DNA of 64,000 nt from a virus (taxonomy: Duplodnaviria > Heunggongvirae > Uroviricota > Caudoviricetes), in IMG/VR virus record IMGVR_UViG_3300048938_000061; one strand, written 5' to 3'. How positions within the stretch are numbered: the stretch's first letter is position 1; each line of letters starts with the position of its first letter. Below the pieces are notes generated by a model. That model was not told the DNA's origin. It worked only from the letters and a program-made list of their open reading frames with translations, and did no database searches. This document shows positions 1 to 13,390 of the stretch, piece after piece. The position numbers and the translations under genes are program-made.

Positions 1-249
1 TCAGATTTTAAGATCTTGAATAAATCGATGCTCACAATTGAAAACGCCTGCTTCATTGAGTATGTCGTGTGTCCATCGATAACGACGGTAAACAGATTTA
101 GCCTGATCAAGTAGCTCAACTTGCCCACATAGATACTGCCGGATAACCTCTAAATCCTCTTTAGGTATCGCTACATCAACAAAATCTCTTAATTGTTGAG
201 AAGCTGGCTGCACCTGCAAAAATCCAAAGAATTCATCCCACAAATTCAT
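1..249 (-). CDS. hypothetical protein (82 aa); last gene of a 3-gene coupled operon
   Basis: Complete ORF with its stop at 1..3. Its start overlaps the upstream gene stop (246..249, ATGA-type overlap). No recognisable motif. Confidence 0.45.
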   Translation of the reverse strand: MNLWDEFFGFLQVQPASQQLRDFVDVAIPKEDLEVIRQYLCGQVELLDQAKSVYRRYRWTHDILNEAGVFNCEHRFIQDLKI

Positions 250-662
250 AGGCTTCGCTCTTCCACTGCTGTCAGAATGCGTGCGGGATCAACATTTGAT
301 GTCAGCCCATCTTTCTTCACCGAGATTTGGGGTAGCGGCCCCAAACCAGCGCGCCGACGCATTTCGTCAAGTGGCACGGTTTTATGAATTTCATCAATAA
401 TAAGCCGCCTACGATTGCTGAAATCAGGAAGCAGCGGTGGCAGGTGCTTTAACATCCGCTTGCCGAAATCAATGACATATACGAGTGGAAGAACAACCAC
501 AAAGATGACCACTAATGGGATCATCGTAATACGCTCACAAATTTTATAGAACGCCGCTTTATCAATTAGATGCCTGATCTCAGGACATGCTTTTGCAACT
601 TTAAACTCAGAATAATATCCGCGTCGTGGCGAAATATATCGCCAAGGAAAGAACGGCTTCAT
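246..662 (-). CDS. hypothetical membrane protein (138 aa)
   Basis: Hydrophobic stretch 'MIPLVVIFVVVLPLVYVI'. Its start overlaps the stop of the upstream phosphoesterase gene (659..662). Confidence 0.55.
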   Translation of the reverse strand: MKPFFPWRYISPRRGYYSEFKVAKACPEIRHLIDKAAFYKICERITMIPLVVIFVVVLPLVYVIDFGKRMLKHLPPLLPDFSNRRRLIIDEIHKTVPLDEMRRRAGLGPLPQISVKKDGLTSNVDPARILTAVEERSL

Positions 663-1495
663 AGCCGCCCTCCTTGGAATTGGTATCTCGGATCATTTAG
701 ATCAATCACAAGGTCAAACTGATAATCTCTGTTTTCATTCACATATCCGCGTGGATTTACAACCACATGGGTATCGTGAACTTGATAATCGAACGAATTG
801 TGGACATGTCCATGAAGGCACAAATGAGGTCTGTACTCATAAATCATATCATCAAGATTCGATACGAAGGACGCGTTCAACGGATCATTTGCATATCGAC
901 TATGAACAGACAATGGATGAACACCATGATGCGTAACCAGTACCGTTTTACCTGCAAAAGGTTCTGCCAAAGCTTTTTCGAGGTATGCCCGAGAAGCGAC
1001 ATGCATATCCAAAATATGCTTGGGATTAAGGCGCGTGTAAGGCTCTTTTCGGTACTTGATCTGATTGAAATCATTCATCGAACCTTTGGCATGTAACATG
1101 CCTAAAGCCTGGTCACCCATGAGCTTATAATCAGTCCAAAGGGTAGCTCCAATGAAACGGACATCACCGATAACAACTTGGTCGTTCTCAAGAAAATGAA
1201 TGTTCGGAAATCTTGTTGCGGCTTTCTTGGCTTCAGCAAGACCATCAACAAGAGAACCCTTATAATATTCATGATTACCCGCCACATAGATCGTTGGAAC
1301 ATGAACATGTTCGGCAAGCCACTCGATTCCTCCTGCTGGCGATTTGTTAACAAGGTCTCCAGTGCATACACAGACATCGATATTCTCGGGCATCTTGAAA
1401 CGATACGAGATGTCGTCGACTTCCAGATGCAAATCAGATAGTGGCCAAATTCTCATTAACGGACTCCTTCTCATTATTATATGCCCGAATTTCAC
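659..1495 (-). CDS. metallophosphoesterase, calcineurin-like (Icc/CpdA-like architecture)
   Basis: Ordered motifs 'LSDLHL' (DxH), 'CTGDLVN' (GD), 'AGNHEYY' (GNHE), 'VTHHG' and 'HGHVH' (GHxH). Paralogue of 12484..13293. Confidence 0.85.
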   Translation of the reverse strand: MKFGHIIMRRSPLMRIWPLSDLHLEVDDISYRFKMPENIDVCVCTGDLVNKSPAGGIEWLAEHVHVPTIYVAGNHEYYKGSLVDGLAEAKKAATRFPNIHFLENDQVVIGDVRFIGATLWTDYKLMGDQALGMLHAKGSMNDFNQIKYRKEPYTRLNPKHILDMHVASRAYLEKALAEPFAGKTVLVTHHGVHPLSVHSRYANDPLNASFVSNLDDMIYEYRPHLCLHGHVHNSFDYQVHDTHVVVNPRGYVNENRDYQFDLVIDLNDPRYQFQGGRL

Positions 1496-1689
1496 ATTAT
1501 ATCAATCATCAGTTTTAAAAATGAATTCGAGACTTCACTTATTAATGTTGAATATGTCGGTTTTTTGGAGAATATTAATACCGGAAATATTCCTGCGAAC
1601 GCAATTTAACGATTTATTTTTTCGACCAACCTTTCCGATCTTTATTTTTGATCAATTATTTAGGCTGAATAAGTCAAAAAGGGATAACA

Positions 1690-2577
1690 ATGACCTATCA
1701 CACCAACGGTTACGACATTCATTCCTCATCTTTCGATAAAAGCATCAATTATTCTAAATTGACCAGTGATGGCGGAATGATTGAAACACGCTTTGTGCAA
1801 AGGTTAAAAGATCGATTTATCGTTTACATATCTTCAATGTCAGGATGCGATAAAGCATGCCGTTTCTGTCATCTAACCCAGACAGGCCAAACGATGGCAA
1901 TGAATCTCACGCGCGATCAAATGCTTGAACAGGCTGAGACGGTTTTATCTTCGTCCGCATATCCCGAAGCCACGACTGTTCATTACAATTTCATGGCGCG
2001 TGGAGAGCCGATGACCAATCCGATGGTCAATAAGCATCTATTCCATGATTTGAAACTGGCGGCCGAGAAACGCGGACTGTTTCCACGCATCAAGATCTCC
2101 AGCATTCTACCAACCGATTTTCATGCTTTCGATCCAACATCTCTATGGGATGAAGAAAGTCCCGCGATTGACTTCTATTATTCACTCTATAACCCCGATC
2201 CGGCCTGGCGCAAACGCTGGATTCCGAAAGCCCTGCCCCCGGAAGAAGCTCTTGCATGGCTTGCTAAGTGGCAGCAAGTCACAGGCAACCGCGTCATTCT
2301 ACACTGGGCGCTAATTGATGGTGAAAATGACACCGAATACAATGCACGTGAGGCAACACGTCTAGCGAACGAAGCTGGCCTAAATTGGGATTTCAATCTC
2401 GTTCGATATAATCCTGCCAATGGTAAATCCAAGGAAGCATCCGAAGATCAGATCGAGCGTTTTCTATCAGTTCTACGCAACGAGGTCAGCGATGCAAACC
2501 GCGTAAAGGTCATCCCCAGGGTTGGTTTCGACGTCAAAGCGTCATGCGGGATGTTTCTAACACCTGAGGCGGCGTAA
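1690..2577 (+). CDS. radical SAM enzyme, RlmN/Cfr-like, lacking the N-terminal domain (295 aa)
   Basis: 'SGCDKACRFCHLTQTG' (Cx3Cx2C) at about residue 50. C-terminal 'KASCGMF' resembles the RlmN C-terminal 'AACGQL' Cys motif. The protein is about 80-100 aa shorter than canonical RlmN. Confidence 0.7.
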   Translation: MTYHTNGYDIHSSSFDKSINYSKLTSDGGMIETRFVQRLKDRFIVYISSMSGCDKACRFCHLTQTGQTMAMNLTRDQMLEQAETVLSSSAYPEATTVHYNFMARGEPMTNPMVNKHLFHDLKLAAEKRGLFPRIKISSILPTDFHAFDPTSLWDEESPAIDFYYSLYNPDPAWRKRWIPKALPPEEALAWLAKWQQVTGNRVILHWALIDGENDTEYNAREATRLANEAGLNWDFNLVRYNPANGKSKEASEDQIERFLSVLRNEVSDANRVKVIPRVGFDVKASCGMFLTPEAA

Positions 2578-2597
2578 TCACCTGGTGTCTTTCTTGG

Positions 2598-3431
2598 TTG
2601 TTTTCTACACTGATGGAAATGGCGTCCTTCAAGGCACACCCACGTCAGCATATAAAACGCGTTGAACAAAGCGCACAGGAAGCAGATATGGACATTAATA
2701 CCCTTAAAAATCGAGTACACGAATACGTTCAAAAGCAGATTGATGACGACATTTTTGAACGTCCACTAATGGCAAAAGCATGCATTAATAATGCTATCGA
2801 TTATGCTCTCGGCAAAGGAACAAAAAACGAGGTGTCTCTTCTCCATAAAATGACGCTTCTTCTTCAGCTGCCAGATTTTGATACATTCAAGTTAGGCTAT
2901 TCTTCGGTCGACCCTGATGACGACCTATCAAGTTTTTTTGAGGCAATCTTCAACAATGAGATTGCTTCAATGTTCAAGGAAACGCAGGCGAAAATTTCTG
3001 CAACGTCAATTGAAAGACACCTGCTCACAGACGCAGAATATGTGTTGGAGATCGCTAATTATCGAGAAGATAGCAAATTTATCGACAGAATGGCGCGCAA
3101 TCAAATCCGTGCTGCTGTCAGTCATCTAAAAGAAGGAGCCGCAGATACTGTGGACGTAGCAACAGCCATTGAATCTGGAAACATTCTGCAAACTCTACTA
3201 GCGCACCGAAATGATCACAAACTCCATGTGATACACGGCACGTCAATCGAACGTATTGATCAAATCACTGAGAAACTACGCCAACTTAGAGTGCTTGCTC
3301 GACCACATCGCCATATGGGTTGGGGCAAGGATGCCATGAATAAGAACATTCTTGAATTGGTTGCTGACCTAAATAATTCTAGAGCTGCTACAAATGAACT
3401 TGATAAAAGCGATACAGCAATGAAAATGTGA
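2598..3431 (+). CDS. hypothetical protein (277 aa)
   Basis: Long ORF four codons downstream of the radical SAM gene. No recognisable motif. Confidence 0.6.
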   Translation: MFSTLMEMASFKAHPRQHIKRVEQSAQEADMDINTLKNRVHEYVQKQIDDDIFERPLMAKACINNAIDYALGKGTKNEVSLLHKMTLLLQLPDFDTFKLGYSSVDPDDDLSSFFEAIFNNEIASMFKETQAKISATSIERHLLTDAEYVLEIANYREDSKFIDRMARNQIRAAVSHLKEGAADTVDVATAIESGNILQTLLAHRNDHKLHVIHGTSIERIDQITEKLRQLRVLARPHRHMGWGKDAMNKNILELVADLNNSRAATNELDKSDTAMKM

Positions 3432-3458
3432 TTATATCCGAACTAATTATTTGCAAAA

Positions 3459-3511
3459 CAAGAAGGCGAGACAATCATGATTGGCTTGCCTTCTTGTTAA
3501 TTTCTGTTTTT
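3459..3511 (+). terminator. rho-independent terminator (hairpin plus T-run)
   Basis: Stem 'caagaaggc' (3459..3467) pairs with 'gccttcttg' (3488..3496), followed by 'ttaatttctgttttt'. Confidence 0.55.
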
Positions 3512-3626
3512 AACGTGGCGCAATCACTATGACCACATCACTCAGTTGAGGCTTCTTTATTTTACGTGGGCCCCCTCTACCACTACATTATTTTGATAAG
3601 AAAACGTAATTTGAAATGGATCAATA

Positions 3627-3667
3627 TTAAAAAGGAGGCATCACAAAGCCGACGCCTCCTTTTTAAT
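3627..3667. terminator. bidirectional rho-independent terminator between convergent genes
   Basis: 'aaaaaGGAGGCatcacaaagccgacGCCTCCttttt': a GC stem flanked by an A-run and a T-run. Confidence 0.6.
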
Positions 3668-3713
3668 ATTTTATAGTTTAAATTATTTGCCCGCTTAAAG
3701 CTCACAAAATTGT

Positions 3714-6700
3714 TCAGAACTTAATTTTTAGGCCAACGTTAAACGAAGTCGCCGTCTTCCCGCCATCTGTTGGGATTGCGACTTCACCGCCACCGTAAAT
3801 CGACAGCTTTTCATTGAAGTTGTATTCTGTGCTTAGACCCAAAACCACATTGGTTTTCCCACGGCGAGCACCATCGGAAGTGAAATCTGTGCCGCTTAGC
3901 GAAAGATCACGTCGAGACTTCGTAATATCATGCGTCACAGCAGCCTTACCATAAATGCCAAGCGTTGCTCCATTCTTGCCAACCGTCTTTTTGCCGCCAA
4001 TCTTTACGCCAAACTCAGGGCGGAAAAGGTCCGTGCTGGACTTACCAGCTGAAACGCCACCAATACCTGCTTCAGAGAAGCCATCCGTACGCGAATAGAT
4101 GTAAGTGCCAGCAACATAAGGCGTCACAGTGAAATGGCCAATCTTTGCGACATCGTAACCGATGTCCACCTTAGCGGCGAAAATGTTGCCATGGTAATCT
4201 GTGCTGAGATGATCGCCGAGACCGAATATGGAACGGGTGGTTTCGAACTTCTGCCGACCGTAAGCCACCTGACCATTCAGTGTCCACATGTCGTGGGTGT
4301 AGCCGAGATAAGCGCCACCGAAATAGGTGTCTATATTATTATCGTCAGCCTGACCAGACACCTCGACCTTCATCGTGTTCCAGCCAGCATAGGCACCAGC
4401 AACAAGATCACTGGTGATGCGCTTGTCCATTCCAAATACGACACCGCCCAAAGAGTAATCTACGTTTGAAGCTCCTTTGCGACCATTCAGACCACCGACA
4501 CCACCGATACCGTCCATCCAGAGGCCAGTCGCCATATCGTGATCAAAACGCAACTGGTCAAGACGGTTACTCACACGTGACATAGGGGTTTCAATAGCCA
4601 CCATGCTTGCCTGAACAATCGAAGGGTGTACATCGCCGGAAATTTCCTCAAGCGCATTCTTCACAGCTCTCGCGGTATCGAGTTGCTGAATACCAGCTCC
4701 GAGCTTGATAAGATCATTTGACGCCAATACGACAGAAGTTTCCCCTGTCTTGTCAGCCTGGGTCTCGACGCTGTTTTCAATCATGGTCGCCGATTTACAA
4801 CCGTTTTCGCTTTCACAGACACTACTCTGCGTAATAGGGGTCGCGTCATAGCTGACAACGACATCATTACCAGTCAGATGATATGCCCCATTAACGAGAT
4901 AGGTCGGGCGGAAGTCAAAACTTTCAAAGTCACCTGAAATACCGCCTGCAGCTGTCATAACGCTGGTCTGACCTGTGCGGACGTAAGCATTTTCCACGCC
5001 GTCAATAGCCAATAGACCACCATTGATGGTTGCGGTGCCTGTTACATCAAGATTGGAACCTAGAACAACGGAAAGCGCGCCGCCGTCATTTACGTAGTTG
5101 CCGTTAACCCGAAGCGTGCCCGTATACGGCCAACCTGCATGCAGAATGCCTTTCGAGATCACATTACCGAGCTGTCCGTCCCCACCAACAATACCATTGA
5201 CACCGATACTGGTGTTTCCTGTTATAGAGCCGTTGACCACCAGCGCACCATCATTGACGGTAGTTCCGCCCGTGTAACTGTTATTCCCTGTCAAACGAAG
5301 AATGCCGCTGCCGTTCTTAACAAGGCCGCCTGCTCCAGAGATGTCGTTTTGCCAGACAGAGCCTCCGGAGAACGATACGTTGAAATCTCCCCAATCGAAC
5401 TTACCAGGACCGCGTATTGCCTTGGCAACGTCAACCATCCCGTAACCGAACACTGGATCAACTCCAGGCGCTCCGATGTCGCGAGCCGTACCAAGCAATA
5501 CCTGACCAATCTGGTCGCCCTTCATATATGGAAACACCTGCTTTACAAGAGCAGCTGAGGCCGTAATGACGGGGGCGGCGGCCGATGTTCCCGCAAAGAT
5601 ATGGGCATCATTTTGATCGGCATGTCCAGGCATATATAGACTAACTGGAGCGGCCAGACACCAACGAGCCACTGGACCACATTTGTTCGAATAGTATTCA
5701 AGATCACCATTATCGTTGGTCGCAACAACTGTCAGGTAACCACCTGTTTGCAATCGAGCATCCGTCAATTGCAAAGCGCCCCAATTGCCCGGATAATCCA
5801 GGGCGTCATTTGATGCGGACCAAACCATTAGCATACCATGCTGATCAATATACTTAGCAGAAATCTGACGTAATAGATCTAGTCCTGCAGAAGTCGAAAA
5901 CCCGTTGATAGGCAATTCCCAAGCTTTAACGCCAATGCTATGGTTTATAATGGTCACACCATCGACAAGCATATTTGCGTAAATCTGGTCGAATATTGAA
6001 TAAGAGATATAGCCATCAGTATCAAAAAGATGCGCTTGAGAAAGCTTTACACCCGGAGCTATACCACCAGCATAGCCAGTGTTGTTTTGCCACGTTGAAT
6101 CTGTATTACCAGTGATTATCATTGAAACGCTATCACCATGTCTTGTTTCAGTTTGTGTGCTGTTAGTGACATAGTTTCTTGTTGCGATGATTTTACCCTT
6201 CAGATGGATTCCTTCTCCACTAAAACCAGAATCCAAGGCACCAACGATAACATTTTGACCTGTAACGCCACGCGCATAGGCGTCATGAGCACCAATTGTT
6301 GTCATTGTTTTCGAAGTCTTGGTCTTATAAATGACAGGTATTTGCCATTCAGCAAGCCGAGGGACAGGAACGGTCGCAAGAAACTTGCTCGCTGACCGTT
6401 CAATACCTGTCACACTGTCAGCAATTGAACGACCAGCATCTCTCAATGCGTCAATGGCTTGCCTACCGACATTGTCGGTATATCTCAATGATGGAGCATA
6501 TTTGGCACCTTGTTCAGAGAAAGGAGGATTTTCACCAGGAAACGTTGAAGGAGGCGTCCAACCGCCAGAACCTCCGCTTCCTCCTGAGCCGCCATTCCCA
6601 AGTTCTGTATTATTATTCGAACCACCGTCATCGCCACCACCGCTACAAGCTGTCAAAAACGATGTTGCAAGAAGAGCAGAGATTAGTAGCGTTTTTCGTA

Positions 6701-6794
6701 AATTAGTGGTTTTCAAGATATGTCCCCAAATAAAATAAGCGCGAAGGCCTTCTATGAAGTGATTCATTGTCCATTCAATATTTATTGGCTGCAA
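3714..6794 (-). CDS. autotransporter (type Va) with S8 subtilisin-like serine protease passenger domain; probable lipoprotein
   Basis: Signal peptide with lipobox 'LTAC' and a Gly/Ser-rich linker. Catalytic triad contexts 'ALDSGF' (Asp), 'HGDSVS' (His) and 'GTSAAAP' (Ser). The C-terminal beta-barrel ends '...GLKIKF'. The true start is probably the internal Met 'MNHF...'. Confidence 0.85.
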   Translation of the reverse strand: MQPINIEWTMNHFIEGLRAYFIWGHILKTTNLRKTLLISALLATSFLTACSGGGDDGGSNNNTELGNGGSGGSGGSGGWTPPSTFPGENPPFSEQGAKYAPSLRYTDNVGRQAIDALRDAGRSIADSVTGIERSASKFLATVPVPRLAEWQIPVIYKTKTSKTMTTIGAHDAYARGVTGQNVIVGALDSGFSGEGIHLKGKIIATRNYVTNSTQTETRHGDSVSMIITGNTDSTWQNNTGYAGGIAPGVKLSQAHLFDTDGYISYSIFDQIYANMLVDGVTIINHSIGVKAWELPINGFSTSAGLDLLRQISAKYIDQHGMLMVWSASNDALDYPGNWGALQLTDARLQTGGYLTVVATNDNGDLEYYSNKCGPVARWCLAAPVSLYMPGHADQNDAHIFAGTSAAAPVITASAALVKQVFPYMKGDQIGQVLLGTARDIGAPGVDPVFGYGMVDVAKAIRGPGKFDWGDFNVSFSGGSVWQNDISGAGGLVKNGSGILRLTGNNSYTGGTTVNDGALVVNGSITGNTSIGVNGIVGGDGQLGNVISKGILHAGWPYTGTLRVNGNYVNDGGALSVVLGSNLDVTGTATINGGLLAIDGVENAYVRTGQTSVMTAAGGISGDFESFDFRPTYLVNGAYHLTGNDVVVSYDATPITQSSVCESENGCKSATMIENSVETQADKTGETSVVLASNDLIKLGAGIQQLDTARAVKNALEEISGDVHPSIVQASMVAIETPMSRVSNRLDQLRFDHDMATGLWMDGIGGVGGLNGRKGASNVDYSLGGVVFGMDKRITSDLVAGAYAGWNTMKVEVSGQADDNNIDTYFGGAYLGYTHDMWTLNGQVAYGRQKFETTRSIFGLGDHLSTDYHGNIFAAKVDIGYDVAKIGHFTVTPYVAGTYIYSRTDGFSEAGIGGVSAGKSSTDLFRPEFGVKIGGKKTVGKNGATLGIYGKAAVTHDITKSRRDLSLSGTDFTSDGARRGKTNVVLGLSTEYNFNEKLSIYGGGEVAIPTDGGKTATSFNVGLKIKF

Positions 6795-6924
6795 ATGATA
6801 TTTACGGCAATTTCTTGTAATAATAAAAATATTAAATAGAATGTCGTATTTTATATTGATTTAACGTTGTCGAAGTTTATTAATTGATCAGACAAATTGA
6901 AGAATCCAAAACAAGGTACCAATA

Positions 6925-7386
6925 ATGGCCGTAGAAATTGAACGAAAATTCCTAGTAAAAAACGACAGCTGGAAAGCACGCGTCGTCAGCAGCTATCACA
7001 TTATTCAGGGATATCTCGTTGGTGAGCCAAAACTTGCAGTCCGTCTTCGCATCATCGACGACAAGGAAGCCCTTCTTACGATCAAGGGCAAGGGTGAAGG
7101 CATCGCACGACCTGAATACGAGTACCCGATCCCGCTCGTAGACGCCAAAGGAATGCTCTCAATGTGCGGCACACGCATCCTTGAGAAGACACGTCATCTG
7201 ATCAATGCAAACGACGGCCTCAAGTGGGAAGTTGATGTGTTTGCTGGTCGGCACGCTGGTCTCGTACTTGCTGAGATCGAATTGCCAAGCCTCGACACCA
7301 ATGTCGAGTTGCCTGAATGGACAGGCGAAGACGTAAGCGAAGACCCCCGTTATCTCAACGCTGTGCTAGCCATCCCTGCCGAGTAG
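6925..7386 (+). CDS. CYTH-domain protein (CyaB/ThTPase-like triphosphate tunnel metalloenzyme)
   Basis: N-terminal 'EIERKFLV' (the ExExK hallmark of CYTH). 153 aa. Confidence 0.8.
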   Translation: MAVEIERKFLVKNDSWKARVVSSYHIIQGYLVGEPKLAVRLRIIDDKEALLTIKGKGEGIARPEYEYPIPLVDAKGMLSMCGTRILEKTRHLINANDGLKWEVDVFAGRHAGLVLAEIELPSLDTNVELPEWTGEDVSEDPRYLNAVLAIPAE

Positions 7387-7419
7387 CCTGCCATCTTAGG
7401 CTCTACTCGGCGAGACGCA

Positions 7420-8226
7420 CTACGACATCTGCATGGCAGGTTGGTAGTCATCCAGAAAGGTTATGCAGCTGTCGTCGAATCCAGAATTGATGAATTCGGC
7501 CAAGTCATCAAAGAGTTCAGCACTCTTACCGTGCCAATTAAGATGAAAAAAATCCTGAGCATAGCGCTTGTTATTTGACAGGAAAGTCTTGAGAGCTTCA
7601 AAATCACCATTGATATCGCGATCCTCATCGACGCCCTCTTCTACTGCTCTCCCGAGCGCGTTGAGTTTTTCTGACATCTGGCCCTCAGTAAGGCCGCCAT
7701 ACGAAAACTGATAATTCCCGGCCATCCCGACGCAAATGTCTTCAACGTAAGCGACGTCAGCCCCAACGGTTTTCAGAACAGTATGCATGTCATCCAGACA
7801 CTCGTCCGCAAATGCACCAACGAGATGGACCTTCTTGTCTTTCAGACTGTGATGCCATGGATCGATTTCAAGAATGTGCCCGTCACCTTCGTCGTAATAT
7901 GGACGGGTCGCGTCACACCACGTAATTCCACGGTTCTCTTCAGATATCTGATCGGGATCATAATCATATTGATCCTTGGTCCAGCCATATCCGTATTCGA
8001 AACGACGGAACTGAATACCTTCTTCTCTGCAAAATTCCTCAATTCGCACTTGTTGCCATTCGACCTCGTCTACGTCGTAGAAGGACATGATGACTTCGTC
8101 TAGGTTATCTTTGTTGTTGTCGAGGAAGTCCATGATTTTCGACAACTCAACTTCTATATCGGTACCGAATTTATTCAATCCGGCGTCCCACATTTCCTCG
8201 AAATGATGAATAACAAGTACAGCCAT
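7420..8226 (-). CDS. hypothetical acidic protein (268 aa)
   Basis: Long ORF, very Asp/Glu-rich. No confident family. Confidence 0.55.
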   Translation of the reverse strand: MAVLVIHHFEEMWDAGLNKFGTDIEVELSKIMDFLDNNKDNLDEVIMSFYDVDEVEWQQVRIEEFCREEGIQFRRFEYGYGWTKDQYDYDPDQISEENRGITWCDATRPYYDEGDGHILEIDPWHHSLKDKKVHLVGAFADECLDDMHTVLKTVGADVAYVEDICVGMAGNYQFSYGGLTEGQMSEKLNALGRAVEEGVDEDRDINGDFEALKTFLSNNKRYAQDFFHLNWHGKSAELFDDLAEFINSGFDDSCITFLDDYQPAMQMS

Positions 8227-8235
8227 ATTGCCTGC

Positions 8236-8850
8236 TCACATTGCCATGGCAGGCACTCTCGAAAGCTCGCGGTGAGCAACGAGGCCAGCAGTGATATCAC
8301 GGACTAGCGGGGTATCCCGAAGCCTCTCCAGGAAGAATTCCGGCTTGAGCAAATAGCTTTCCTTCGGGTCCATTCTGAAGCTTAGTGAACCGTCATCAGC
8401 CATATCGAGGATGTAGCGCATACGATTGAGCTTGTAGCCGTCATTGATCACGCCCAAAGCGCCTTCAGGATGAGCGTCGACCAGCTGGCAGATGTGTTTC
8501 TCAGCCTTGCTGCGGCTGCTACTGTCAATTATGATGTCTAGACGGATCAGAAGTTCGAGGGCGCTCTTTTCGTCAGGTGAGATGAAACGAGAATTAGCGT
8601 CGACCCAAAGATGTGGGTAGCTTCCAGTCGCTTTATGAAAATTATCGAGAGAATGTTCTGCTACGTAGATATTCCCATTGTTCCAGTCACCATTATCACG
8701 TCTATAATAACGGTACATAAAGGCTGGACCGCCCATGGTCACGCCGTACGAAGCCCCGCCCAGATCGACTTCCGAATAATTATTATCTCTTTTATGATAA
8801 AGAGTACGACCAGATAATACGTCTTCAATAAAAGCCGGAACCATTCTCAT
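8236..8850 (-). CDS. hypothetical protein (204 aa)
   Basis: Long ORF 10 nt downstream of the previous gene. No motif. Confidence 0.55.
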   Translation of the reverse strand: MRMVPAFIEDVLSGRTLYHKRDNNYSEVDLGGASYGVTMGGPAFMYRYYRRDNGDWNNGNIYVAEHSLDNFHKATGSYPHLWVDANSRFISPDEKSALELLIRLDIIIDSSSRSKAEKHICQLVDAHPEGALGVINDGYKLNRMRYILDMADDGSLSFRMDPKESYLLKPEFFLERLRDTPLVRDITAGLVAHRELSRVPAMAM

Positions 8851-9083
8851 TCTAATTTCTCACTATTCATTTTTATTTCACGAGCAACGAAGTAAATTGA
8901 TCGATCTTATCAACATGATATTTTTCGATCAGTCGTATGCATTCAACAAGTACAAAAGACCAATCTTGTAATCGTAAAATATCTTTTCAAAAATGAGCTA
9001 AGCAGATGCAAATACATAAGCAATCAGGCGGTTATTAACCGCCCGACATCAATAATCATATTCATGAATTTAAGACACAAAAA

Positions 9084-9332
9084 CTAGCTGGCGAGTGAAA
9101 GAGCAGCCAGAGTTTTATCCAATGGTTTCCAGTGAGGACAAGTCCATTTGGATTTACGCTCACGACCGCTTGGAAGAATTCCGAAATCACACGAAGATGG
9201 CTGGTCAACGTCGATCACACAGCGCCACGGCTTTTCTCCCTCTTCGTGATCAACAAAACACGAATAACGAACACCTCGTTTGTAATCAGATTTGTTATCA
9301 GCGTCTAAACTGCTCTCAAAATTATCTTCCAT
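9084..9332 (-). CDS. small Cys-containing hypothetical protein (82 aa)
   Basis: ORF with six Cys. Only intermediate confidence that it is coding. Confidence 0.35.
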   Translation of the reverse strand: MEDNFESSLDADNKSDYKRGVRYSCFVDHEEGEKPWRCVIDVDQPSSCDFGILPSGRERKSKWTCPHWKPLDKTLAALSLAS

Positions 9333-9686
9333 ATAAATAAATCCTTTTTGAACTAGTTACGAAAATTTAAGGTGGCAGTCAATATTTCGTTTTTTAATCG
9401 GAGTAGAAAATACAATTTAGACGTAGTAAATTTCGAAACAATATGATGCTTTAAAAGCTTAGTAGGGTCGGCGGGCGTATTAGCAATCTCAGATTAAAAA
9501 GCGAGGAGATTCATAAACAAAACCTTCCTTTCTTCAAAATTTTAATTTAAAAATGCGTGCGGCTTTTTATACAATCATGCCATCTACGATTTTGTATAAA
9601 TTCCATCTGCCGTCAATAATAGTTTCCAGTTTCAATTAACTTTTTGTAGTCCAAATGCTATCGCTTTCTAAATAAACATTATACGA

Positions 9687-10469
9687 CTAATGCCAGCCTG
9701 GAACACGCAGGTGCCGTCCTGAACCTTCTTCTTTGCTCCACCGTATGACGTCGCGTATATGTGACAATATATCATCGGGGACTTCCTGACCTTGTCGAGC
9801 ATTTCCATATTTGGTATATAGAAAATCGCGTTGTTGTTCCAGTTCTTCTTCCGATTTAACTCTAGCATAGTCACCGCGTCTAATGCCGAGTTGAAAATCG
9901 GATTTACATATCTTGCTTTTCTCTGCTTGAATTTTATTGAGGGCTTGCGTAAACCTCGGTTCTGCTATTCCAGTCCCACAGGTCCATTCATAATCCATAT
10001 ATTCACGTGAACTGTATGAACCGACTTCGATGCCATTTATTTCCAAATCATATCCAAACTCAGTCGGAACGATGTCCGGACATATACCAGAAATTTCTTC
10101 CATAAATGTTTTTGCGTCGAGCATGATTTCGAAATCATTGCCATCACAAGCTTTGGTGTCGAAAAGTTCAACCTTCATGAAATAAGGTTGATGCGTTGCG
10201 TCAAAGACAGGCTCTTTTCGAAAACATGGTGTCAGAGATACGAATTTCCCTTCGCCGAGCGTCCCATTCATCAATGCATCTACAAAAGACTGCTCTGAAG
10301 ACCCGACGAGCAATCCGAGATTTCTTAACTCATAAGTTCGGCTGAGATCATCCAGTGTTGAACTAACAGCTTCAATGCTCGCATGCCATGGCAGATCAAC
10401 GCGCTTATAACCAAGATTTTCATACCAATTGAGCGCTTTGACAAGGAACTCCCAGTTAACGGCGACCAT
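9687..10469 (-). CDS. class II aminoacyl-tRNA-synthetase-like catalytic core (SerRS-like paralogue without tRNA-binding arm)
   Basis: 'TPCFRKEPVFDATHQPYFMKVELF' parallels the SerRS motif 2 of this same window ('[28 protein letters not shown]'). 'GTGIAEPRFTQALNKIQ' parallels motif 3 ('GSGVAVGRLLIAIMENYQ'). Only 260 aa. Overlaps the upstream gene by 14 nt. Confidence 0.55.
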   Translation of the reverse strand: MVAVNWEFLVKALNWYENLGYKRVDLPWHASIEAVSSTLDDLSRTYELRNLGLLVGSSEQSFVDALMNGTLGEGKFVSLTPCFRKEPVFDATHQPYFMKVELFDTKACDGNDFEIMLDAKTFMEEISGICPDIVPTEFGYDLEINGIEVGSYSSREYMDYEWTCGTGIAEPRFTQALNKIQAEKSKICKSDFQLGIRRGDYARVKSEEELEQQRDFLYTKYGNARQGQEVPDDILSHIRDVIRWSKEEGSGRHLRVPGWH

Positions 10470-11274
10470 TAGCGAATGCCCTTGCTGTTACTGCAGCCAT
10501 ATCAAGAAGACTCTGAAGTGAAATCGATGGATGATGCTTGTTCAGGTAAGCTTCTATGGCACCCTGAAGGTCGGATAACTCTACAAGCGCCATTATGTCC
10601 ACGCCCTGCTTGACAGCATCCATGAACTCATTGACCTCTTCCGCAATCTTTGAAGGTTCTCCAAGGATGCCCTTCTCGATATCCGTGATGTGATAACCAG
10701 GTCTCGCCTGCTTTGGCAAAAGGTCAGCGATGTAATCCCAGAGCATATTGGGTGCAATCTTGCGTTCAAACGGACATACAGACGCCGCATTCACCTCCCG
10801 GATAACGTTTGCCAAATCTTTGGTGACTGGACCGCGTTCAAGATAAGTGACCGCCTTCGTGGCGCGAATACGATGAAACCCAGTTTCTGCAAACTCGTAG
10901 CTGGTGCCAGCGCTCATGTGGTAAGTGCTACCCTGTCGAAGAAAACCACGTGCAACCGGAACAGGGTCTTTGCTTTCACCTGGCTTACAGGACACCTGAA
11001 TAATTTCATGGTCTCCATCTGGAGCGTTTTCGATAAACCATTCTTCATGAGTTATCTTGCCAAGCAAGATATGCGAATGAAATCGATATCGATGATCGTG
11101 AAGCTCCTCTTCAGGAGTGTCCGCGAGCAAATCAGGATGCCAGAAATGAATTCGAGTATCATCCGTGAGCTTTAGCTGAATAAATCCGAGGCCAAACCAA
11201 TGCGGTGTCGTGCCGAATGAACGCAGGTGATCGACGTCCAGAAATTGGTCTAAACGGCCATCAAAAATACTCAT
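10456..11274 (-). CDS. two-domain protein: His-rich N-terminal domain (cupin-like?) fused to MazG-like NTP pyrophosphohydrolase domain
   Basis: C-terminal 'AEEVNEFMDAV...LVELSDLQGAIEAYL' fits the MazG/HisE all-alpha EExxE...D pattern. The N-terminal region has 'HFWHPD...HDHRYRFHSH'. Confidence 0.5.
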   Translation of the reverse strand: MSIFDGRLDQFLDVDHLRSFGTTPHWFGLGFIQLKLTDDTRIHFWHPDLLADTPEEELHDHRYRFHSHILLGKITHEEWFIENAPDGDHEIIQVSCKPGESKDPVPVARGFLRQGSTYHMSAGTSYEFAETGFHRIRATKAVTYLERGPVTKDLANVIREVNAASVCPFERKIAPNMLWDYIADLLPKQARPGYHITDIEKGILGEPSKIAEEVNEFMDAVKQGVDIMALVELSDLQGAIEAYLNKHHPSISLQSLLDMAAVTARAFANGRR

Positions 11275-11374
11275 AACGAAACCTCTTTTTTTTGAAAATA
11301 TATTGCATTGGAAGTCTTATTTATAAGGCAGTCAACCATTTTTCGATTATTCGCGATTTAATAATAAAAATGGG

Positions 11375-11410
11375 GTCCGAATAAATTTCGAAGCCCCTGA
11401 GATCACTTTA
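11375..11410 (-). terminator. probable rho-independent terminator for gene 11424..11996
   Basis: 'GGGGtccgaataaatttcgaagCCCC' hairpin, followed on the minus strand by a T/A-rich run. Confidence 0.4.
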
Positions 11411-11423
11411 TTTATGTTTAAAA

Positions 11424-11996
11424 TTAAAGGCGGCTTGCTTGAATATACGAAGCCGAATATTCTTCGTCGCCTCCATACTGTGTCACCTCATTTATTTGCG
11501 CGACGACGTCGGAAAACAGGCCTATATCGTCAGTTTTAAGAGCAATTTCCAGATTATTGTAAATATTTTGAAGAACATTTAGCTTATCTGTCTCAGAGGC
11601 TCTCAATTTCGAGGAGTCGACGGTATATGGAGCGACGATATTGAAGTTATCTTTGACAACTTCGATTTGTTGCTTCATTGAAGTAGCGAGTTCAATTGCA
11701 CCTTTTACGTCGCCATCTTCTAACAAGTCACTCAGATGCCAATAATTCTCATTTAAGGTTACAAGTTCGCCCTCAATCAACGCACCATCTTCAAAGTGAC
11801 TGTAGCTCAATGGATAGTTATCGCCTTGAATATTAGGCGAAACAGCATTGCTGTTAATATAGATCGCGCCTGTGAGAGCAACAGCTGTCACAGTGGCAGT
11901 GAAAAGCCTATTCTCAGCAGCTTCAGCCATCCATTCTGAAAGTTTTGACATCGAATTTCCTCCCGAGGATTTATCGTCATTATTGTTCACCGGCAC
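11424..11996 (-). CDS. hypothetical secreted/membrane-anchored protein (190 aa)
   Basis: N-terminal hydrophobic segment 'LFTATVTAVALTGAIYI'. No other motif. Confidence 0.5.
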   Translation of the reverse strand: MPVNNNDDKSSGGNSMSKLSEWMAEAAENRLFTATVTAVALTGAIYINSNAVSPNIQGDNYPLSYSHFEDGALIEGELVTLNENYWHLSDLLEDGDVKGAIELATSMKQQIEVVKDNFNIVAPYTVDSSKLRASETDKLNVLQNIYNNLEIALKTDDIGLFSDVVAQINEVTQYGGDEEYSASYIQASRL

Positions 11997-12074
11997 GCGA
12001 CTAACAATTAAAAATCGTGCTTGCCGATTTTATACGTGTAACATACATTTATGTAACAAAGGCGAGAATTGCGT

Positions 12075-12461
12075 ATGACCAGAATTGAACGTCTATTGAT
12101 TATTTGTTTACTTGTTTCAAGATCCATGGAAGTCGAAAAAACTCTTGAATTTGTGGATGTAATTGAAAGTGGATGCCTTGCACATGAACAAGATTCCATC
12201 CAATACAAAAATAATCTGGTCGCGGCCGCAAAGACTGCACCACTTGACGACAAATATCGGCCAATAATGATGATGTTGTTCCAAGCTCATCAATTGGAAA
12301 ACAAAATTGATCTTTTACAGAAACATGAAATTCATCTGGAGAAAATCCTGGCAACGCTTCGACATCCCGCTCAAAGCCGAATTGCTGAAAAAATATTAAT
12401 TCAAAAGCTATCAGATTTTGTGAAGTATCACCCGTCATCTGAAGCGACACAAACTGGCTAA
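12075..12461 (+). CDS. hypothetical helical protein (about 128 aa)
   Basis: Coding-like composition. 'aaaggcgag' lies upstream of the ATG at 12075 (alternative TTG at 12069). Preferred over the overlapping antisense ORF 12100..12480. Confidence 0.4.
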   Translation: MTRIERLLIICLLVSRSMEVEKTLEFVDVIESGCLAHEQDSIQYKNNLVAAAKTAPLDDKYRPIMMMLFQAHQLENKIDLLQKHEIHLEKILATLRHPAQSRIAEKILIQKLSDFVKYHPSSEATQTG

Positions 12462-12483
12462 TATTCGTAAGGGAGACCATTTT

Positions 12484-13293
12484 TTAAAGTTCGATGACTT
12501 TACCGAACTCAAATTTTTCGTTTTCAGCGCCATAGCCCCGAGGGTTGCAAATCACCCTTGTGTTGCCAACATGGTAATCAAATGGCTGATGAACATGTCC
12601 ATGAACCCAAAGGTTAGGTTGATGTTCTTCAATTAAATCTGACAAATCAGAAACGAAAGCTCCATTCGTCGCATCGCCTTCAAATTTCGGATGAATTGAA
12701 GCTCTGTGTGGAGCATGATGGCTTACTACAACCGTTTTGCCATCAAAAGGTACCGCCAGAGTGACGTCGATGAAACTCCTCGTCTCTTGGTGAAGAGTTA
12801 CAAAGTCAGAAGGAAGTGCAAGCCTTGGAATGATGCCATCGCCTTTAGGAGCCTTTAAATAAATATTGCTGTAGTCCGACAGCCCATTTTTAGCGGCCCA
12901 CATGGCTTTTTGGATCGCTACATTACGCTCCGCTCCTGCTTCAGGGGCATCAATTGCAAAGTCAGTCCACAACGTGCCACCAAGAAAGCGTACGCCTTCA
13001 ATGATTTCAACACCGTTATCAAGGAAAGTCACATCTAGAGCGTTTGCGATAAGCCGCGCATTTTTGCGACCGCTTTCGATTGATGTATCATAGAATTCAT
13101 GATTTCCTGGCACCCAGATGACTGGCATTTTTGGCCTGACGACTTTTCCCACCCAGTTAATCGCAAGATGCATTGAATCGGTGACATCGCCAGCCAGAAC
13201 ACAAACATCAGCCTGCGGGTATCGATCAGGCTTTATCAACCGGATCGCGTCCTTCTGTGGGATATGTAGGTCAGATAAAATCCAGATACGCAT
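12484..13293 (-). CDS. metallophosphoesterase, calcineurin-like (paralogue of 659..1495)
   Basis: 'LSDLHI', 'LAGDVTD', 'PGNHEFYD', 'VSHHAPH', 'VHGHVHQPFDY'. Clear end-to-end similarity to 659..1495. Confidence 0.85.
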   Translation of the reverse strand: MRIWILSDLHIPQKDAIRLIKPDRYPQADVCVLAGDVTDSMHLAINWVGKVVRPKMPVIWVPGNHEFYDTSIESGRKNARLIANALDVTFLDNGVEIIEGVRFLGGTLWTDFAIDAPEAGAERNVAIQKAMWAAKNGLSDYSNIYLKAPKGDGIIPRLALPSDFVTLHQETRSFIDVTLAVPFDGKTVVVSHHAPHRASIHPKFEGDATNGAFVSDLSDLIEEHQPNLWVHGHVHQPFDYHVGNTRVICNPRGYGAENEKFEFGKVIEL

Positions 13294-13390
13294 ATGTCTT
13301 GATTACAGGATCAGAATTACTCGGTCAACGATTTAAATATTGACAATAATTATTTATTTAAATAAATGGTCCTTAACAAAGGACATAATT

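Follow-up and report, generated by a model that had tools for sequence, protein, structure and literature searches.

The subject of this report is a gene at 1690..2577 (+) in a 64,000-nucleotide stretch of DNA, hereafter the window, filed as IMG/VR virus record IMGVR_UViG_3300048938_000061. Its 295-residue product, here called the rSAM protein, is a radical S-adenosylmethionine (SAM) protein of the RlmN/Cfr lineage. It has no counterpart of the N-terminal HhH2 domain of these enzymes, and a strictly conserved tyrosine, Tyr46, stands where they have the cysteine that resolves the covalent enzyme-substrate intermediate. The protein belongs to a distinct accessory family of stand-alone enzymes descended from RlmN/Cfr and found on jumbo phages, megaplasmids and genomic islands. 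A role in the modification of nucleic acids or nucleotides is the best guess. The leading explanation, to which a probability of about 0.45 was given, is that the enzyme C-methylates an adenine nucleotide, probably one in RNA, by way of methyl-Cys286 and that Tyr46 acts as the resolving residue. Nucleotides are numbered by window position and residues along this open reading frame (ORF).

Lineage, domain content and Tyr46

Among the NCBIfam families, the best match of the rSAM protein was TIGR00048 (RlmN), with an E-value of 2.3e-20. Its 72.8 bits compare with an equivalog cut-off of 290, and the alignment spans only profile positions 74-341 of 355. The Cfr models TIGR04432, NF000424 and NF011024 gave 61-65 bits (E about 1e-17) against cut-offs of 468-550. 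The Pfam profile Radical_SAM (PF04055) scored 22.2 bits, under its gathering score of 29.5, so that membership of the superfamily rests on the motif and the fold. When the PDB was searched with phmmer, the only solved structures matched were those of Cfr (2e-15) and RlmN proteins (5e-15 to 2e-6). A profile of 49 family members was aligned by hhalign with Escherichia coli RlmN (b2517, taken from NC_000913.3) at 98% probability, residues 30-291 of the query being paired with RlmN residues 103-360, and a tblastn match to RlmN covered residues 88-358 of that protein.

Every one of these alignments begins at RlmN residue about 88-103, and the HhH2 domain of about 90 residues that precedes this point has no counterpart in the rSAM protein. 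Loss of an N-terminal rRNA-recognition domain had been proposed in an earlier note made from the sequence alone, and it is borne out here. In Cfr, this domain binds RNA tertiary structure without sequence specificity, and rRNA binding depends crucially on it (PMC13001441, a cryo-EM preprint). The possibility that the domain is encoded by a separate upstream ORF was rejected: the ORFs abutting the gene in D6, CcrColossus and Gurke do not resemble the RlmN N-terminus (E > 0.4). Small ORFs upstream of the rSAM gene are conserved in no more than one to three lineages, and the few longer members of the family carry N-terminal extensions unrelated to that of RlmN. Net charge was uninformative as a discriminator of RNA binding, the median isoelectric point of the family being 6.6 versus 6.1 for the RlmN core.

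The AlphaFold2 model obtained from the family alignment had a mean predicted local distance difference test score (pLDDT) of 90 and a predicted template modelling score (pTM) of 0.89, the last 13 residues, which include Cys286, excepted. With this model, the top 11 Foldseek matches were RlmN/Cfr chains (E 8e-16 to 2e-11, TM-score over the query (TMq) 0.59-0.74). The next folds, those of MqnE, pyruvate formate-lyase (PFL) activase and viperin, started at 9e-7, four to five orders of magnitude behind this group and about nine behind its best member, and the top 47 matches were all radical SAM enzymes. Assignment to another radical SAM family (PFL activase, QueE, viperin or MiaB) was rejected, the matches being weak only (NCBIfam E of at least 5e-3, Foldseek E of at least 9e-7), and the protein is thus not of the QueE or PFL-activase type. 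Its profiles and predicted fold make it a radical SAM core of the RlmN/Cfr lineage without HhH2 domain, which would begin at the beta-sheet extension that in Cfr joins the N-terminal domain to the radical SAM barrel (PMC13001441). The predicted equivalent of this extension, residues 13-38 (1726..1803, +), forms the N-terminus here, as judged from the alignments, conservation and the strands of the model (residues 8-12, 19-24 and 30-39); S13, D16, S18, N20, E32, R34, V36 and R38 are its invariant residues.

The core carries a Cx3Cx2C motif, 'GCDKACRFC' (1846..1869, +), the only one among all window ORFs of at least 100 amino acids. Its C53, C57 and C60, the radical SAM [4Fe-4S] ligands, are invariant across the family and align by hhalign with C125, C129 and C132 of E. 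coli RlmN; the shift of about 70 residues that had been noticed beforehand is therefore real. Residues 100-107 (1987..2010, +) read 'NFMARGEP', in which N100 aligns with Cfr S153 (a ribose contact), M102 with RlmN M176, and G105-E106 with the GE of 'GMGEP' (residue roles from PMC9692996 and PMC13001441). The C-terminal tail 'GFDVKASCGMF' (residues 279-289; 2524..2556, +) contains the invariant Cys286 (codon 2545-2547), which aligns with the methyl-carrying cysteines RlmN C355 and Cfr C338. Its 'ASCGMF' pairs with RlmN 'AACGQL', as expected from the resemblance of 'KASCGMF' to the methyl-Cys motif of RlmN that had been pointed out earlier. The tail has low pLDDT, which is consistent with a flexible tail. 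C53, C57, C60 and C286 are the only cysteines of the rSAM protein, and a total of four is common in the family.

Two conserved cysteines define the class A radical SAM methylases, and the first (RlmN C355, Cfr C338) carries the methyl group (PMC9692996). The second (RlmN C118, Cfr C105) removes the proton from C2 or C8 in the covalent enzyme-RNA intermediate, which releases the product. It has been described as indispensable for release from the RNA substrate, and C118A and C105A/S mutants stay crosslinked to RNA, which is the basis of the RlmN-tRNA and Cfr-rRNA structures (PMC9692996, PMC13001441). In the rSAM protein, the resolving position, seven residues N-terminal to the first cluster cysteine, is occupied by Tyr46 (TAC codon, 1825..1827, +) in three independent alignments: phmmer to Cfr and two RlmN proteins, hhalign, and MAFFT with E. 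coli RlmN. The local sequences are 'FIVYISSMSGC' in the rSAM protein, 'TLCVSSQVGC' in RlmN and 'SFCISSQCGC' in Cfr, and in the model Tyr46 lies at the end of the strand of residues 42-47, right ahead of the cluster loop. It was kept in all 120 close and medium homologues, in 140/140 sequences from genomes and viral contigs, and in each of the 151 representatives at 50% identity. No alternative conserved cysteine was found in the alignments of homologues. The methyl-Cys apparatus is invariant, both the G-x-D-x-x-A-x-C-G tail with Cys286 and Met102 (RlmN M176).

Read from these alignments, the rSAM core is not an intact RlmN/Cfr methyl-transfer core, as its resolving cysteine is replaced by an invariant tyrosine. 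The earlier note had called it an RlmN/Cfr-type methyl-transfer core; the lineage was right, by profile, PDB, hhalign and Foldseek evidence alike, and the integrity of the core was not. Absence of the N-terminal domain is not the sole, and probably not the main, difference from RlmN and Cfr. Because the curated score, the N-terminal domain and the Cys118 equivalent are all wanting, a canonical orthologue is ruled out and the protein was filed neither as RlmN nor as Cfr; by the two-cysteine definition it is not strictly class A either. A literature search returned no description of a phrog_27142-type clade or of any class A enzyme with tyrosine for cysteine.

The profile phrog_27142 ('Fe-S-cluster redox domain-containing') matches residues 8-290 at E=6.4e-85 over positions 6-299 of 300, and the same label is carried by 201phi2-1 gp434, CcrColossus gp283, Psa21 and Phabio. 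An HMMER scan of 1.84 billion representatives put the family at about 284 clusters at 50% identity (E <=1e-30). By tblastn, homologues of 40-44% identity were found in the jumbo phages Pseudomonas 201phi2-1 (gp434), Phabio, Psa21, D6, Viktualia and RVTF4, and in Caulobacter CcrColossus and CcrPW and eight Brevundimonas phages; a viral scan gave 61 loci, mostly on contigs of 200-465 kb. Genome scanning added Pseudomonas megaplasmids of 0.95-1.06 Mb, a Paracoccus plasmid of 535 kb, and bacterial carriers among Planctomycetota, Myxococcota, Alcaligenaceae, Saccharibacteria, Nocardia, Acetobacter and others. Among the genomes, 'Mesorhizobium sp. SP-1A' has the nearest copy, at 89% identity. The dN/dS ratio of the gene was 0.065-0.082 against its orthologues, with dS near saturation; the gene is functional and under strong purifying selection. 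The family is one of the uncharacterised auxiliary genes that jumbo phages and Pseudomonas megaplasmids conserve.

Many of the 1,570 relatives in a large protein collection are automatically named 'adenine C2-methylase RlmN'. The pipeline names are 'adenine C2-methylase RlmN of 23S rRNA A2503 and tRNA A37' or 'ribosomal RNA large subunit methyltransferase N', and are met in database entries (P0001, P0014 and others) and in the GenBank phages D6, Psa21 and Marchewka. Since a domain and a catalytic cysteine are missing, the RlmN label on family members is probably a propagated over-annotation.

Proposed reaction, substrate and alternatives

In the reaction that we propose, a first SAM would methylate Cys286 on the flexible C-terminal tail, as in RlmN/Cfr. 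A second SAM would be cleaved at the C53/C57/C60 [4Fe-4S] cluster to give a 5'-deoxyadenosyl radical; a methylene radical would then form on methyl-Cys286 and add to an sp2 carbon of the base. Product release would differ from that of the known enzymes, the proton being abstracted by, or through, the invariant Tyr46. As the family has no other conserved cysteine, Tyr46 would have to serve in release, and since the position is strictly tyrosine and not merely any residue other than cysteine, the tyrosine itself presumably has a job. This would most simply be that of a base or proton relay triggering C-S fragmentation. The substrate would most likely be an adenine nucleotide, most probably within RNA, with tRNA favoured. 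The missing HhH2 domain and the different flanking-RNA contacts suggest a site or context other than 23S A2503.

The choice of substrate was approached by transferring the contacts of the Cfr-rRNA complex (PMC13001441) onto the family through the phmmer alignment with Cfr. Positions that would contact the target adenosine are 86-99% conserved: V36 (Cfr M95), R38 (Y97), N100 (S153), N236 (N288), V278-G279 (F330-G331), D281 (D333) and A284 (A336). In Cfr, the adenine is recognised at N1 and N6 by the backbone of F330 and A336 (PMC13001441), and G279, D281 and A284 match this segment. The equivalents of the residues that contact flanking nucleotides or helix H90 (Cfr W101, S187, N208, K250, Y252 and H286) are variable. 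Conservation of the adenosine-contact positions makes an adenine nucleotide the most likely substrate, and the pattern suggests that it is met in a different or looser context, either at another RNA site or as a free nucleotide. The family also has invariant arginines R34, R38 and R104, and a nearly invariant R277, where Cfr has V93, Y97, M157 and Q329.

Gene neighbourhoods were compared over 139 rSAM loci, which single linkage at >=70% identity resolved into 59 lineages. When the 9,044 flanking ORFs of these lineages were clustered all against all, no partner protein proved common to most lineages, let alone universal. In 14/29 viral lineages the rSAM gene has a tRNA gene within 10 kb, in 11 at least two, and in seven one within 1.5 kb. 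All 213 neighbouring tRNAs are on the rSAM strand, and in two loci the rSAM gene sits inside arrays of 23 (L120) and 31 (L135) tRNAs. An RtcB gene follows at about 1.1 kb in nine loci, and four have a gene for a CCA-adding enzyme some 2 kb downstream. A class-II aminoacyl-tRNA synthetase (aaRS)-like core (phrog_4806, E=7e-38) occurs within 10 kb in five lineages, that of the window included. In 34 Planctomycetota/Myxococcota loci (e.g. L014:1246-4500, -) an AbiEii-family nucleotidyltransferase gene (Pfam E=9e-28) is divergently adjacent, at about 160 bp. It opens a fixed cassette, being followed by a gene for a leucine-rich repeat (LRR) protein of about 490-545 amino acids and, in 21 loci, by one for a weakly sulfotransferase-like protein. 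No AbiEi antitoxin gene was evident in the AbiEii operon of these 34 loci. MenT toxins, which are relatives of AbiEii, modify tRNA 3' ends. A Pfam scan also showed, among phage neighbours, thymidylate synthases, ribonucleotide reductase (RNR), dCTP deaminase, NAPRTase and cytidylyltransferase-like genes. Metallophosphoesterase (Metallophos) genes lie within 10 kb in 8/59 lineages, and one stands directly downstream of the rSAM gene in one viral lineage (loci with this order: L104, L125 and L128). As a whole, the neighbourhoods lean towards an RNA or tRNA substrate.

Several observations weigh against methyl-Cys-dependent methylation of adenine in RNA with release through Tyr46. Alanine or serine at C118/C105 abolishes turnover of RlmN and Cfr (PMC9692996, PMC13001441), and the literature search found no biochemistry on any family member. 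Loss of the N-terminal domain and variable flanking contacts would also suit a mononucleotide substrate, and the contact mapping is inferred from an alignment at about 20-25% identity, not from superposed coordinates. Among 149 same-strand neighbours in the 29 viral lineages, the Pfam scan found no family in more than two lineages. The tRNA association is regional, that of a shared region and not of an operon, as measured within 20 kb: tRNA density is raised throughout the 20 kb, at about 0.17 per kb, with higher values upstream and no sharp peak at the rSAM gene. No tRNA gene is nearby in half of the viral lineages, in most bacterial loci or in the window itself. The nucleotide-metabolism neighbours, finally, fit a free-nucleotide or DNA substrate equally well.

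The alternative that survives best, although unlikely, keeps the same first-half chemistry and directs it to a free adenine nucleotide or a small molecule derived from one, such as a (d)NTP, a cofactor, or a cyclic or oligonucleotide signal. A missing HhH2 domain with no separate upstream copy, and a conserved pocket for the target nucleotide next to variable flanking-RNA contacts, are what such an enzyme might show, and the family arginines R34, R38, R104 and R277 could bind phosphates. The nucleotide-metabolism genes of the phages point the same way, as do the two CpdA-like metallophosphoesterases and the CYTH protein of the window. However, the extra arginines suit RNA-backbone binding equally, and every characterised relative acts on RNA (PMC9692996, PMC13001441). 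The neighbours are heterogeneous, none being conserved family-wide, and the associations with tRNA, RtcB, the CCA-adding enzyme and AbiEii point to RNA.

Mutating the resolving cysteine is the standard laboratory way to trap RlmN or Cfr on RNA, and a family in which this residue is always tyrosine poses a direct mechanistic question, namely how, or whether, the enzyme-substrate adduct is resolved. There is a small chance that it is a widespread natural RlmN/Cfr branch without release cysteine that has either new tyrosine-based resolving chemistry, possibly with a product other than C-methyl, or a programmed single-turnover trap, by which giant phages, megaplasmids and islands would bind covalently to a particular host RNA, for example a tRNA, and inactivate or mark it. 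Target identity could reveal a new way for large mobile elements to manipulate RNA or nucleotides.

Taken by itself, the trap is an improbable reading. The protein would be a natural 'C118-less' single-turnover enzyme that stays covalently on RNA, and mobile elements would use it to inactivate or mark a host RNA, be it for host shut-off, as a toxin or in abortive infection. Loss of C118/C105 is the exact change that makes RlmN and Cfr stable protein-RNA crosslinkers (PMC9692996, PMC13001441), and no other conserved cysteine could take over in the family. The carriers are phages, plasmids and islands; the divergent pairing with a toxin-family AbiEii nucleotidyltransferase in 34 loci comes with no recognisable AbiEi in the operon; and phage copies stand beside tRNA arrays, which could replace inactivated host tRNAs. 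Yet if a residue other than cysteine were all that is needed, position 46 should vary among Ala, Ser and others, whereas the tyrosine is invariant. A stoichiometric mechanism is also costly, no conserved antitoxin-like partner occurs in the phages or the window, and a PADLOC match is absent.

Low odds were likewise given to a different chemistry, in which methyl synthesis has been abandoned and Cys286 serves as a hydrogen-atom donor or acceptor in an isomerisation, crosslink, repair or similar reaction. One of the two defining cysteines is indeed gone, the family-specific invariant aromatics Y46, Y163, Y164, Y167 and W177 could form a radical-relay path, and clostridial 'Cfr-like' enzymes likewise fail to methylate rRNA (PMC5062987). 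The whole methyl-Cys apparatus, with its invariant tail and M102, is nevertheless hard to explain without a methyl-Cys step.

There is slight reason to think of DNA as the substrate, with adenine C-methylated in the phage or plasmid genome, for instance as protection against restriction. The family is carried by large mobile elements, DNA-metabolism genes stand among its neighbours, and radical SAM enzymes participate in phage DNA hypermodification pathways. However, the usual companions of hypermodification, kinases and glycosylase-like transferases, were undetected in the neighbourhood analyses; the family is also present in bacterial chromosomes with the AbiEii/LRR cassette; and the ribose-contact positions stay polar (N100/N236 versus Cfr S153/N288), weak evidence for a ribonucleotide.

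A housekeeping role as the organism's own 23S m2A2503 and tRNA m2A37 methyltransferase is very unlikely: RlmN names are used by JGI and several GenBank records and RlmN is the best-scoring curated family, but the score is far under the cut-off, the N-terminal domain and C118 are missing, the positions with which Cfr reads the 23S/tRNA context are not conserved, and the family sits on phages and megaplasmids whose hosts are expected to carry their own rlmN since RlmN is widespread in bacteria (PMC5062987).

The rSAM operon and the window

The gene at 1690..2577 (+) is present as described earlier, and a ribosome-binding-site-like AGGGA (1680..1684, +) lies 5 nt 5' of its ATG, a start position shared by the homologues. 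On its 5' side, across a divergent intergenic region (1496..1689) in the ORF map, is the gene for a calcineurin-like metallophosphoesterase (659..1495, -; PF00149 E=6e-13, phrog_1649 E=6e-52). The divergent gap of 194 nt reported earlier is correct for the GTG at 1495. The Metallophos domain begins at residue 14 of this ORF (Met14, ATG 1456), and a promoter-like TTGATA-18-TATAAT (1505..1476, -; 11/12 matches) overlaps the GTG; the true start may therefore be ATG 1456, in which case the gap is not 194 nt. The divergent arrangement recurs in relatives L002, L010, L148 and L150. Downstream of the phosphoesterase gene is a 138-residue ORF (246-662, -) without family match, in which the hydrophobic stretch ITMIPLVVIFVVVLPLVYVI points to a membrane helix; its conservation, at about 70% identity, is confined to this one lineage (L002, L010).

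The co-oriented gene 3' of the rSAM gene had been read as a 277-residue ORF 20 nt downstream, which holds for the mechanical start at TTG 2598. Conservation begins at Met31 (ATG 2688, with AGGAAG upstream), as do all eight homologues; the gene therefore probably starts there, giving 247 residues (2688..3431, +) and a gap of 110 nt. These eight homologues, of 241-254 residues and all from the same bacterial lineage, are the only ones found, so that the description as an ORFan is essentially accurate. The protein had no match to families, PADLOC, in a PDB profile search or in a fold search, and its AlphaFold model is all-helical and of low confidence. Identity as a Tpt1/KptA RNA 2'-phosphotransferase was rejected, with a Pfam E-value of 0.035 only, no recovery in the PDB profile search and no fold match. 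No terminator-like site was found on the + strand between 2577 and 3431, which is why the two genes probably form one transcription unit. A terminator-like hairpin at 3457-3498 with a U-rich tract (3457..3512, +; -23.8 kcal/mol, z = -4.98, 0/200 shuffles as stable), coinciding with inverted repeat I1, is probably the end of this operon. In L150 and L002 an extra gene is inserted between the rSAM gene and the downstream gene, which shows that the latter is not a fixed partner.

A second strong inverted repeat (3623-3670), with 20-nt arms that are 95% complementary, an 8-nt loop and flanking A- and T-runs, separates the operon from a convergent gene for a 1026-residue S8-peptidase autotransporter (3714-6794, -). 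It is probably the terminator of the autotransporter gene and possibly bidirectional. The autotransporter is tandemly duplicated in relatives L002 and L148.

A defence-like context had been suggested for this region. With PADLOC-DB 2.0, neither the rSAM protein nor the downstream ORF gave a match, the phosphoesterase matched the candidate family PDC-S10 weakly (5.7e-15), and the neighbours are phage-type auxiliary families. The suggestion is not supported, and membership of the rSAM gene in a defence system was rejected for want of a PADLOC match.

The window gave no megablast match to the phage and plasmid collections and holds chromosome-type genes for seryl-tRNA synthetase (SerRS), an AddAB-like nuclease and helicase, an M48 peptidase and an SPFH protein. 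These features indicate a bacterial chromosome; an origin as phage or plasmid was rejected on the same grounds, only the left 13 kb being a phage-type island. No tRNA genes are present in the window. Its left part of about 13 kb (1-13300) shares gene order with 'Mesorhizobium sp. SP-1A', the nucleotide identity being 72-89%. GC content is about 44% in this part, as in the window overall, versus 52% in the corresponding region of 'Mesorhizobium sp. SP-1A'. The island includes two metallophosphoesterases (phrog_1649), a CYTH protein (6925-7386; phrog_6660), the class-II aaRS-like core (phrog_4806) and a phrog_4784/phrog_6408 protein. For its genes, the best phage homologues come from those jumbo phages of Caulobacter and Brevundimonas that also have the rSAM gene, which itself is among the best-conserved genes of the island (86-89% protein identity).

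The two metallophosphoesterase paralogues (659-1495 and 12484-13293) are 42% identical to each other's orthologues, and in Rhizobium sp. MHM7A three Metallophos genes are found no more than 20 kb from the rSAM copy. The ORF at 9687-10469 (-) is a minimal class-II aaRS-like core that matches phrog_4806 ('histidyl tRNA synthetase') at E=7e-38 and has no Pfam, NCBIfam or PDB match. The overlapping upstream ORF (10456-11274, -) ends with an 81-residue domain matching phrog_6408. A small phrog_6408-type protein adjoins the phrog_4806 core in many large phages, including CcrColossus, Vibrio phage 2.275.O, Morganella Rgz1 and rV5-like coliphages, and each component occurs in about 275-330 phage records. 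The pair looks like a conserved, uncharacterised two-gene module, which we presume to be akin to SerRS-like amino-acid:carrier-protein ligases with their carrier protein.

Comparison with RlmN, Cfr and shorter relatives

RlmN (b2517; TIGR00048; PDB 3RFA, 5HR7) shares with the rSAM protein the barrel and beta-extension fold (Foldseek E=8e-16, TMq 0.71-0.74), the Cx3Cx2C motif, the tail cysteine (mCys355), the methionine M176, and the 'GEP' and 'NL[IV]xxNP' motifs, at about 20-25% identity. It differs in having the HhH2 N-terminal domain of about 90 residues and Cys118, both of which the rSAM protein lacks, and it is a housekeeping enzyme whereas the rSAM gene is accessory and on mobile elements.

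Cfr (TIGR04432/NF000424; PDB 9P0P; cryo-EM structure in PMC13001441) is the best PDB sequence match (E=2e-15). Its positions M95, S153, N288, F330-G331, D333, A336 and C338 are conserved or conservatively replaced, and its 'NLIRYNP' is nearly identical to the 'NLVRYNP' of the rSAM family. Unlike the rSAM protein, Cfr has the N-terminal domain and Cys105, and its residues W101, Y252, H286 and R249, which contact the U-turn and H90, are not conserved in the family. Nothing suggests that the rSAM protein would confer antibiotic resistance.

Two phage proteins, Tunturiibacter phage Tunturi_5 gp170 and Klebsiella phage 05F01 gene_104, resemble it in being short, in lacking the N-terminal domain and in keeping the 'CGMF' cysteine. 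They match phrog_27142 weakly (E=2e-20 and 4e-24, respectively) and are 23-28% identical. Tunturi_5 gp170 has a cysteine at the C118 position ('ILCLPTQTNC') and thus both class A cysteines, in contrast to the rSAM protein, while 05F01 gene_104 has valine there and a cysteine three residues later. Domain loss and the change from cysteine to tyrosine are therefore separable events. The 05F01 gene (L145:3956-4885) lies between an ADP-ribosylation gene and anaerobic ribonucleotide reductase genes. Gut-phage matches at 25-27% identity were rejected as members of the clade: L147 (gut phage MT835527) is a canonical full-length RlmN/Cfr protein with the HhH2 domain and both cysteines.

The clostridial 'Cfr-like' clade (ClCp, C. 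sporogenes) belongs to the RlmN/Cfr family and leaves A2503 unmethylated, its substrate being not known (PMC5062987). By their description, these are full-length chromosomal Firmicutes genes, for which that paper reports no loss of the N-terminal domain or of the resolving cysteine (PMC5062987), in which they would differ from the rSAM gene. They offer a precedent for family members with other targets.

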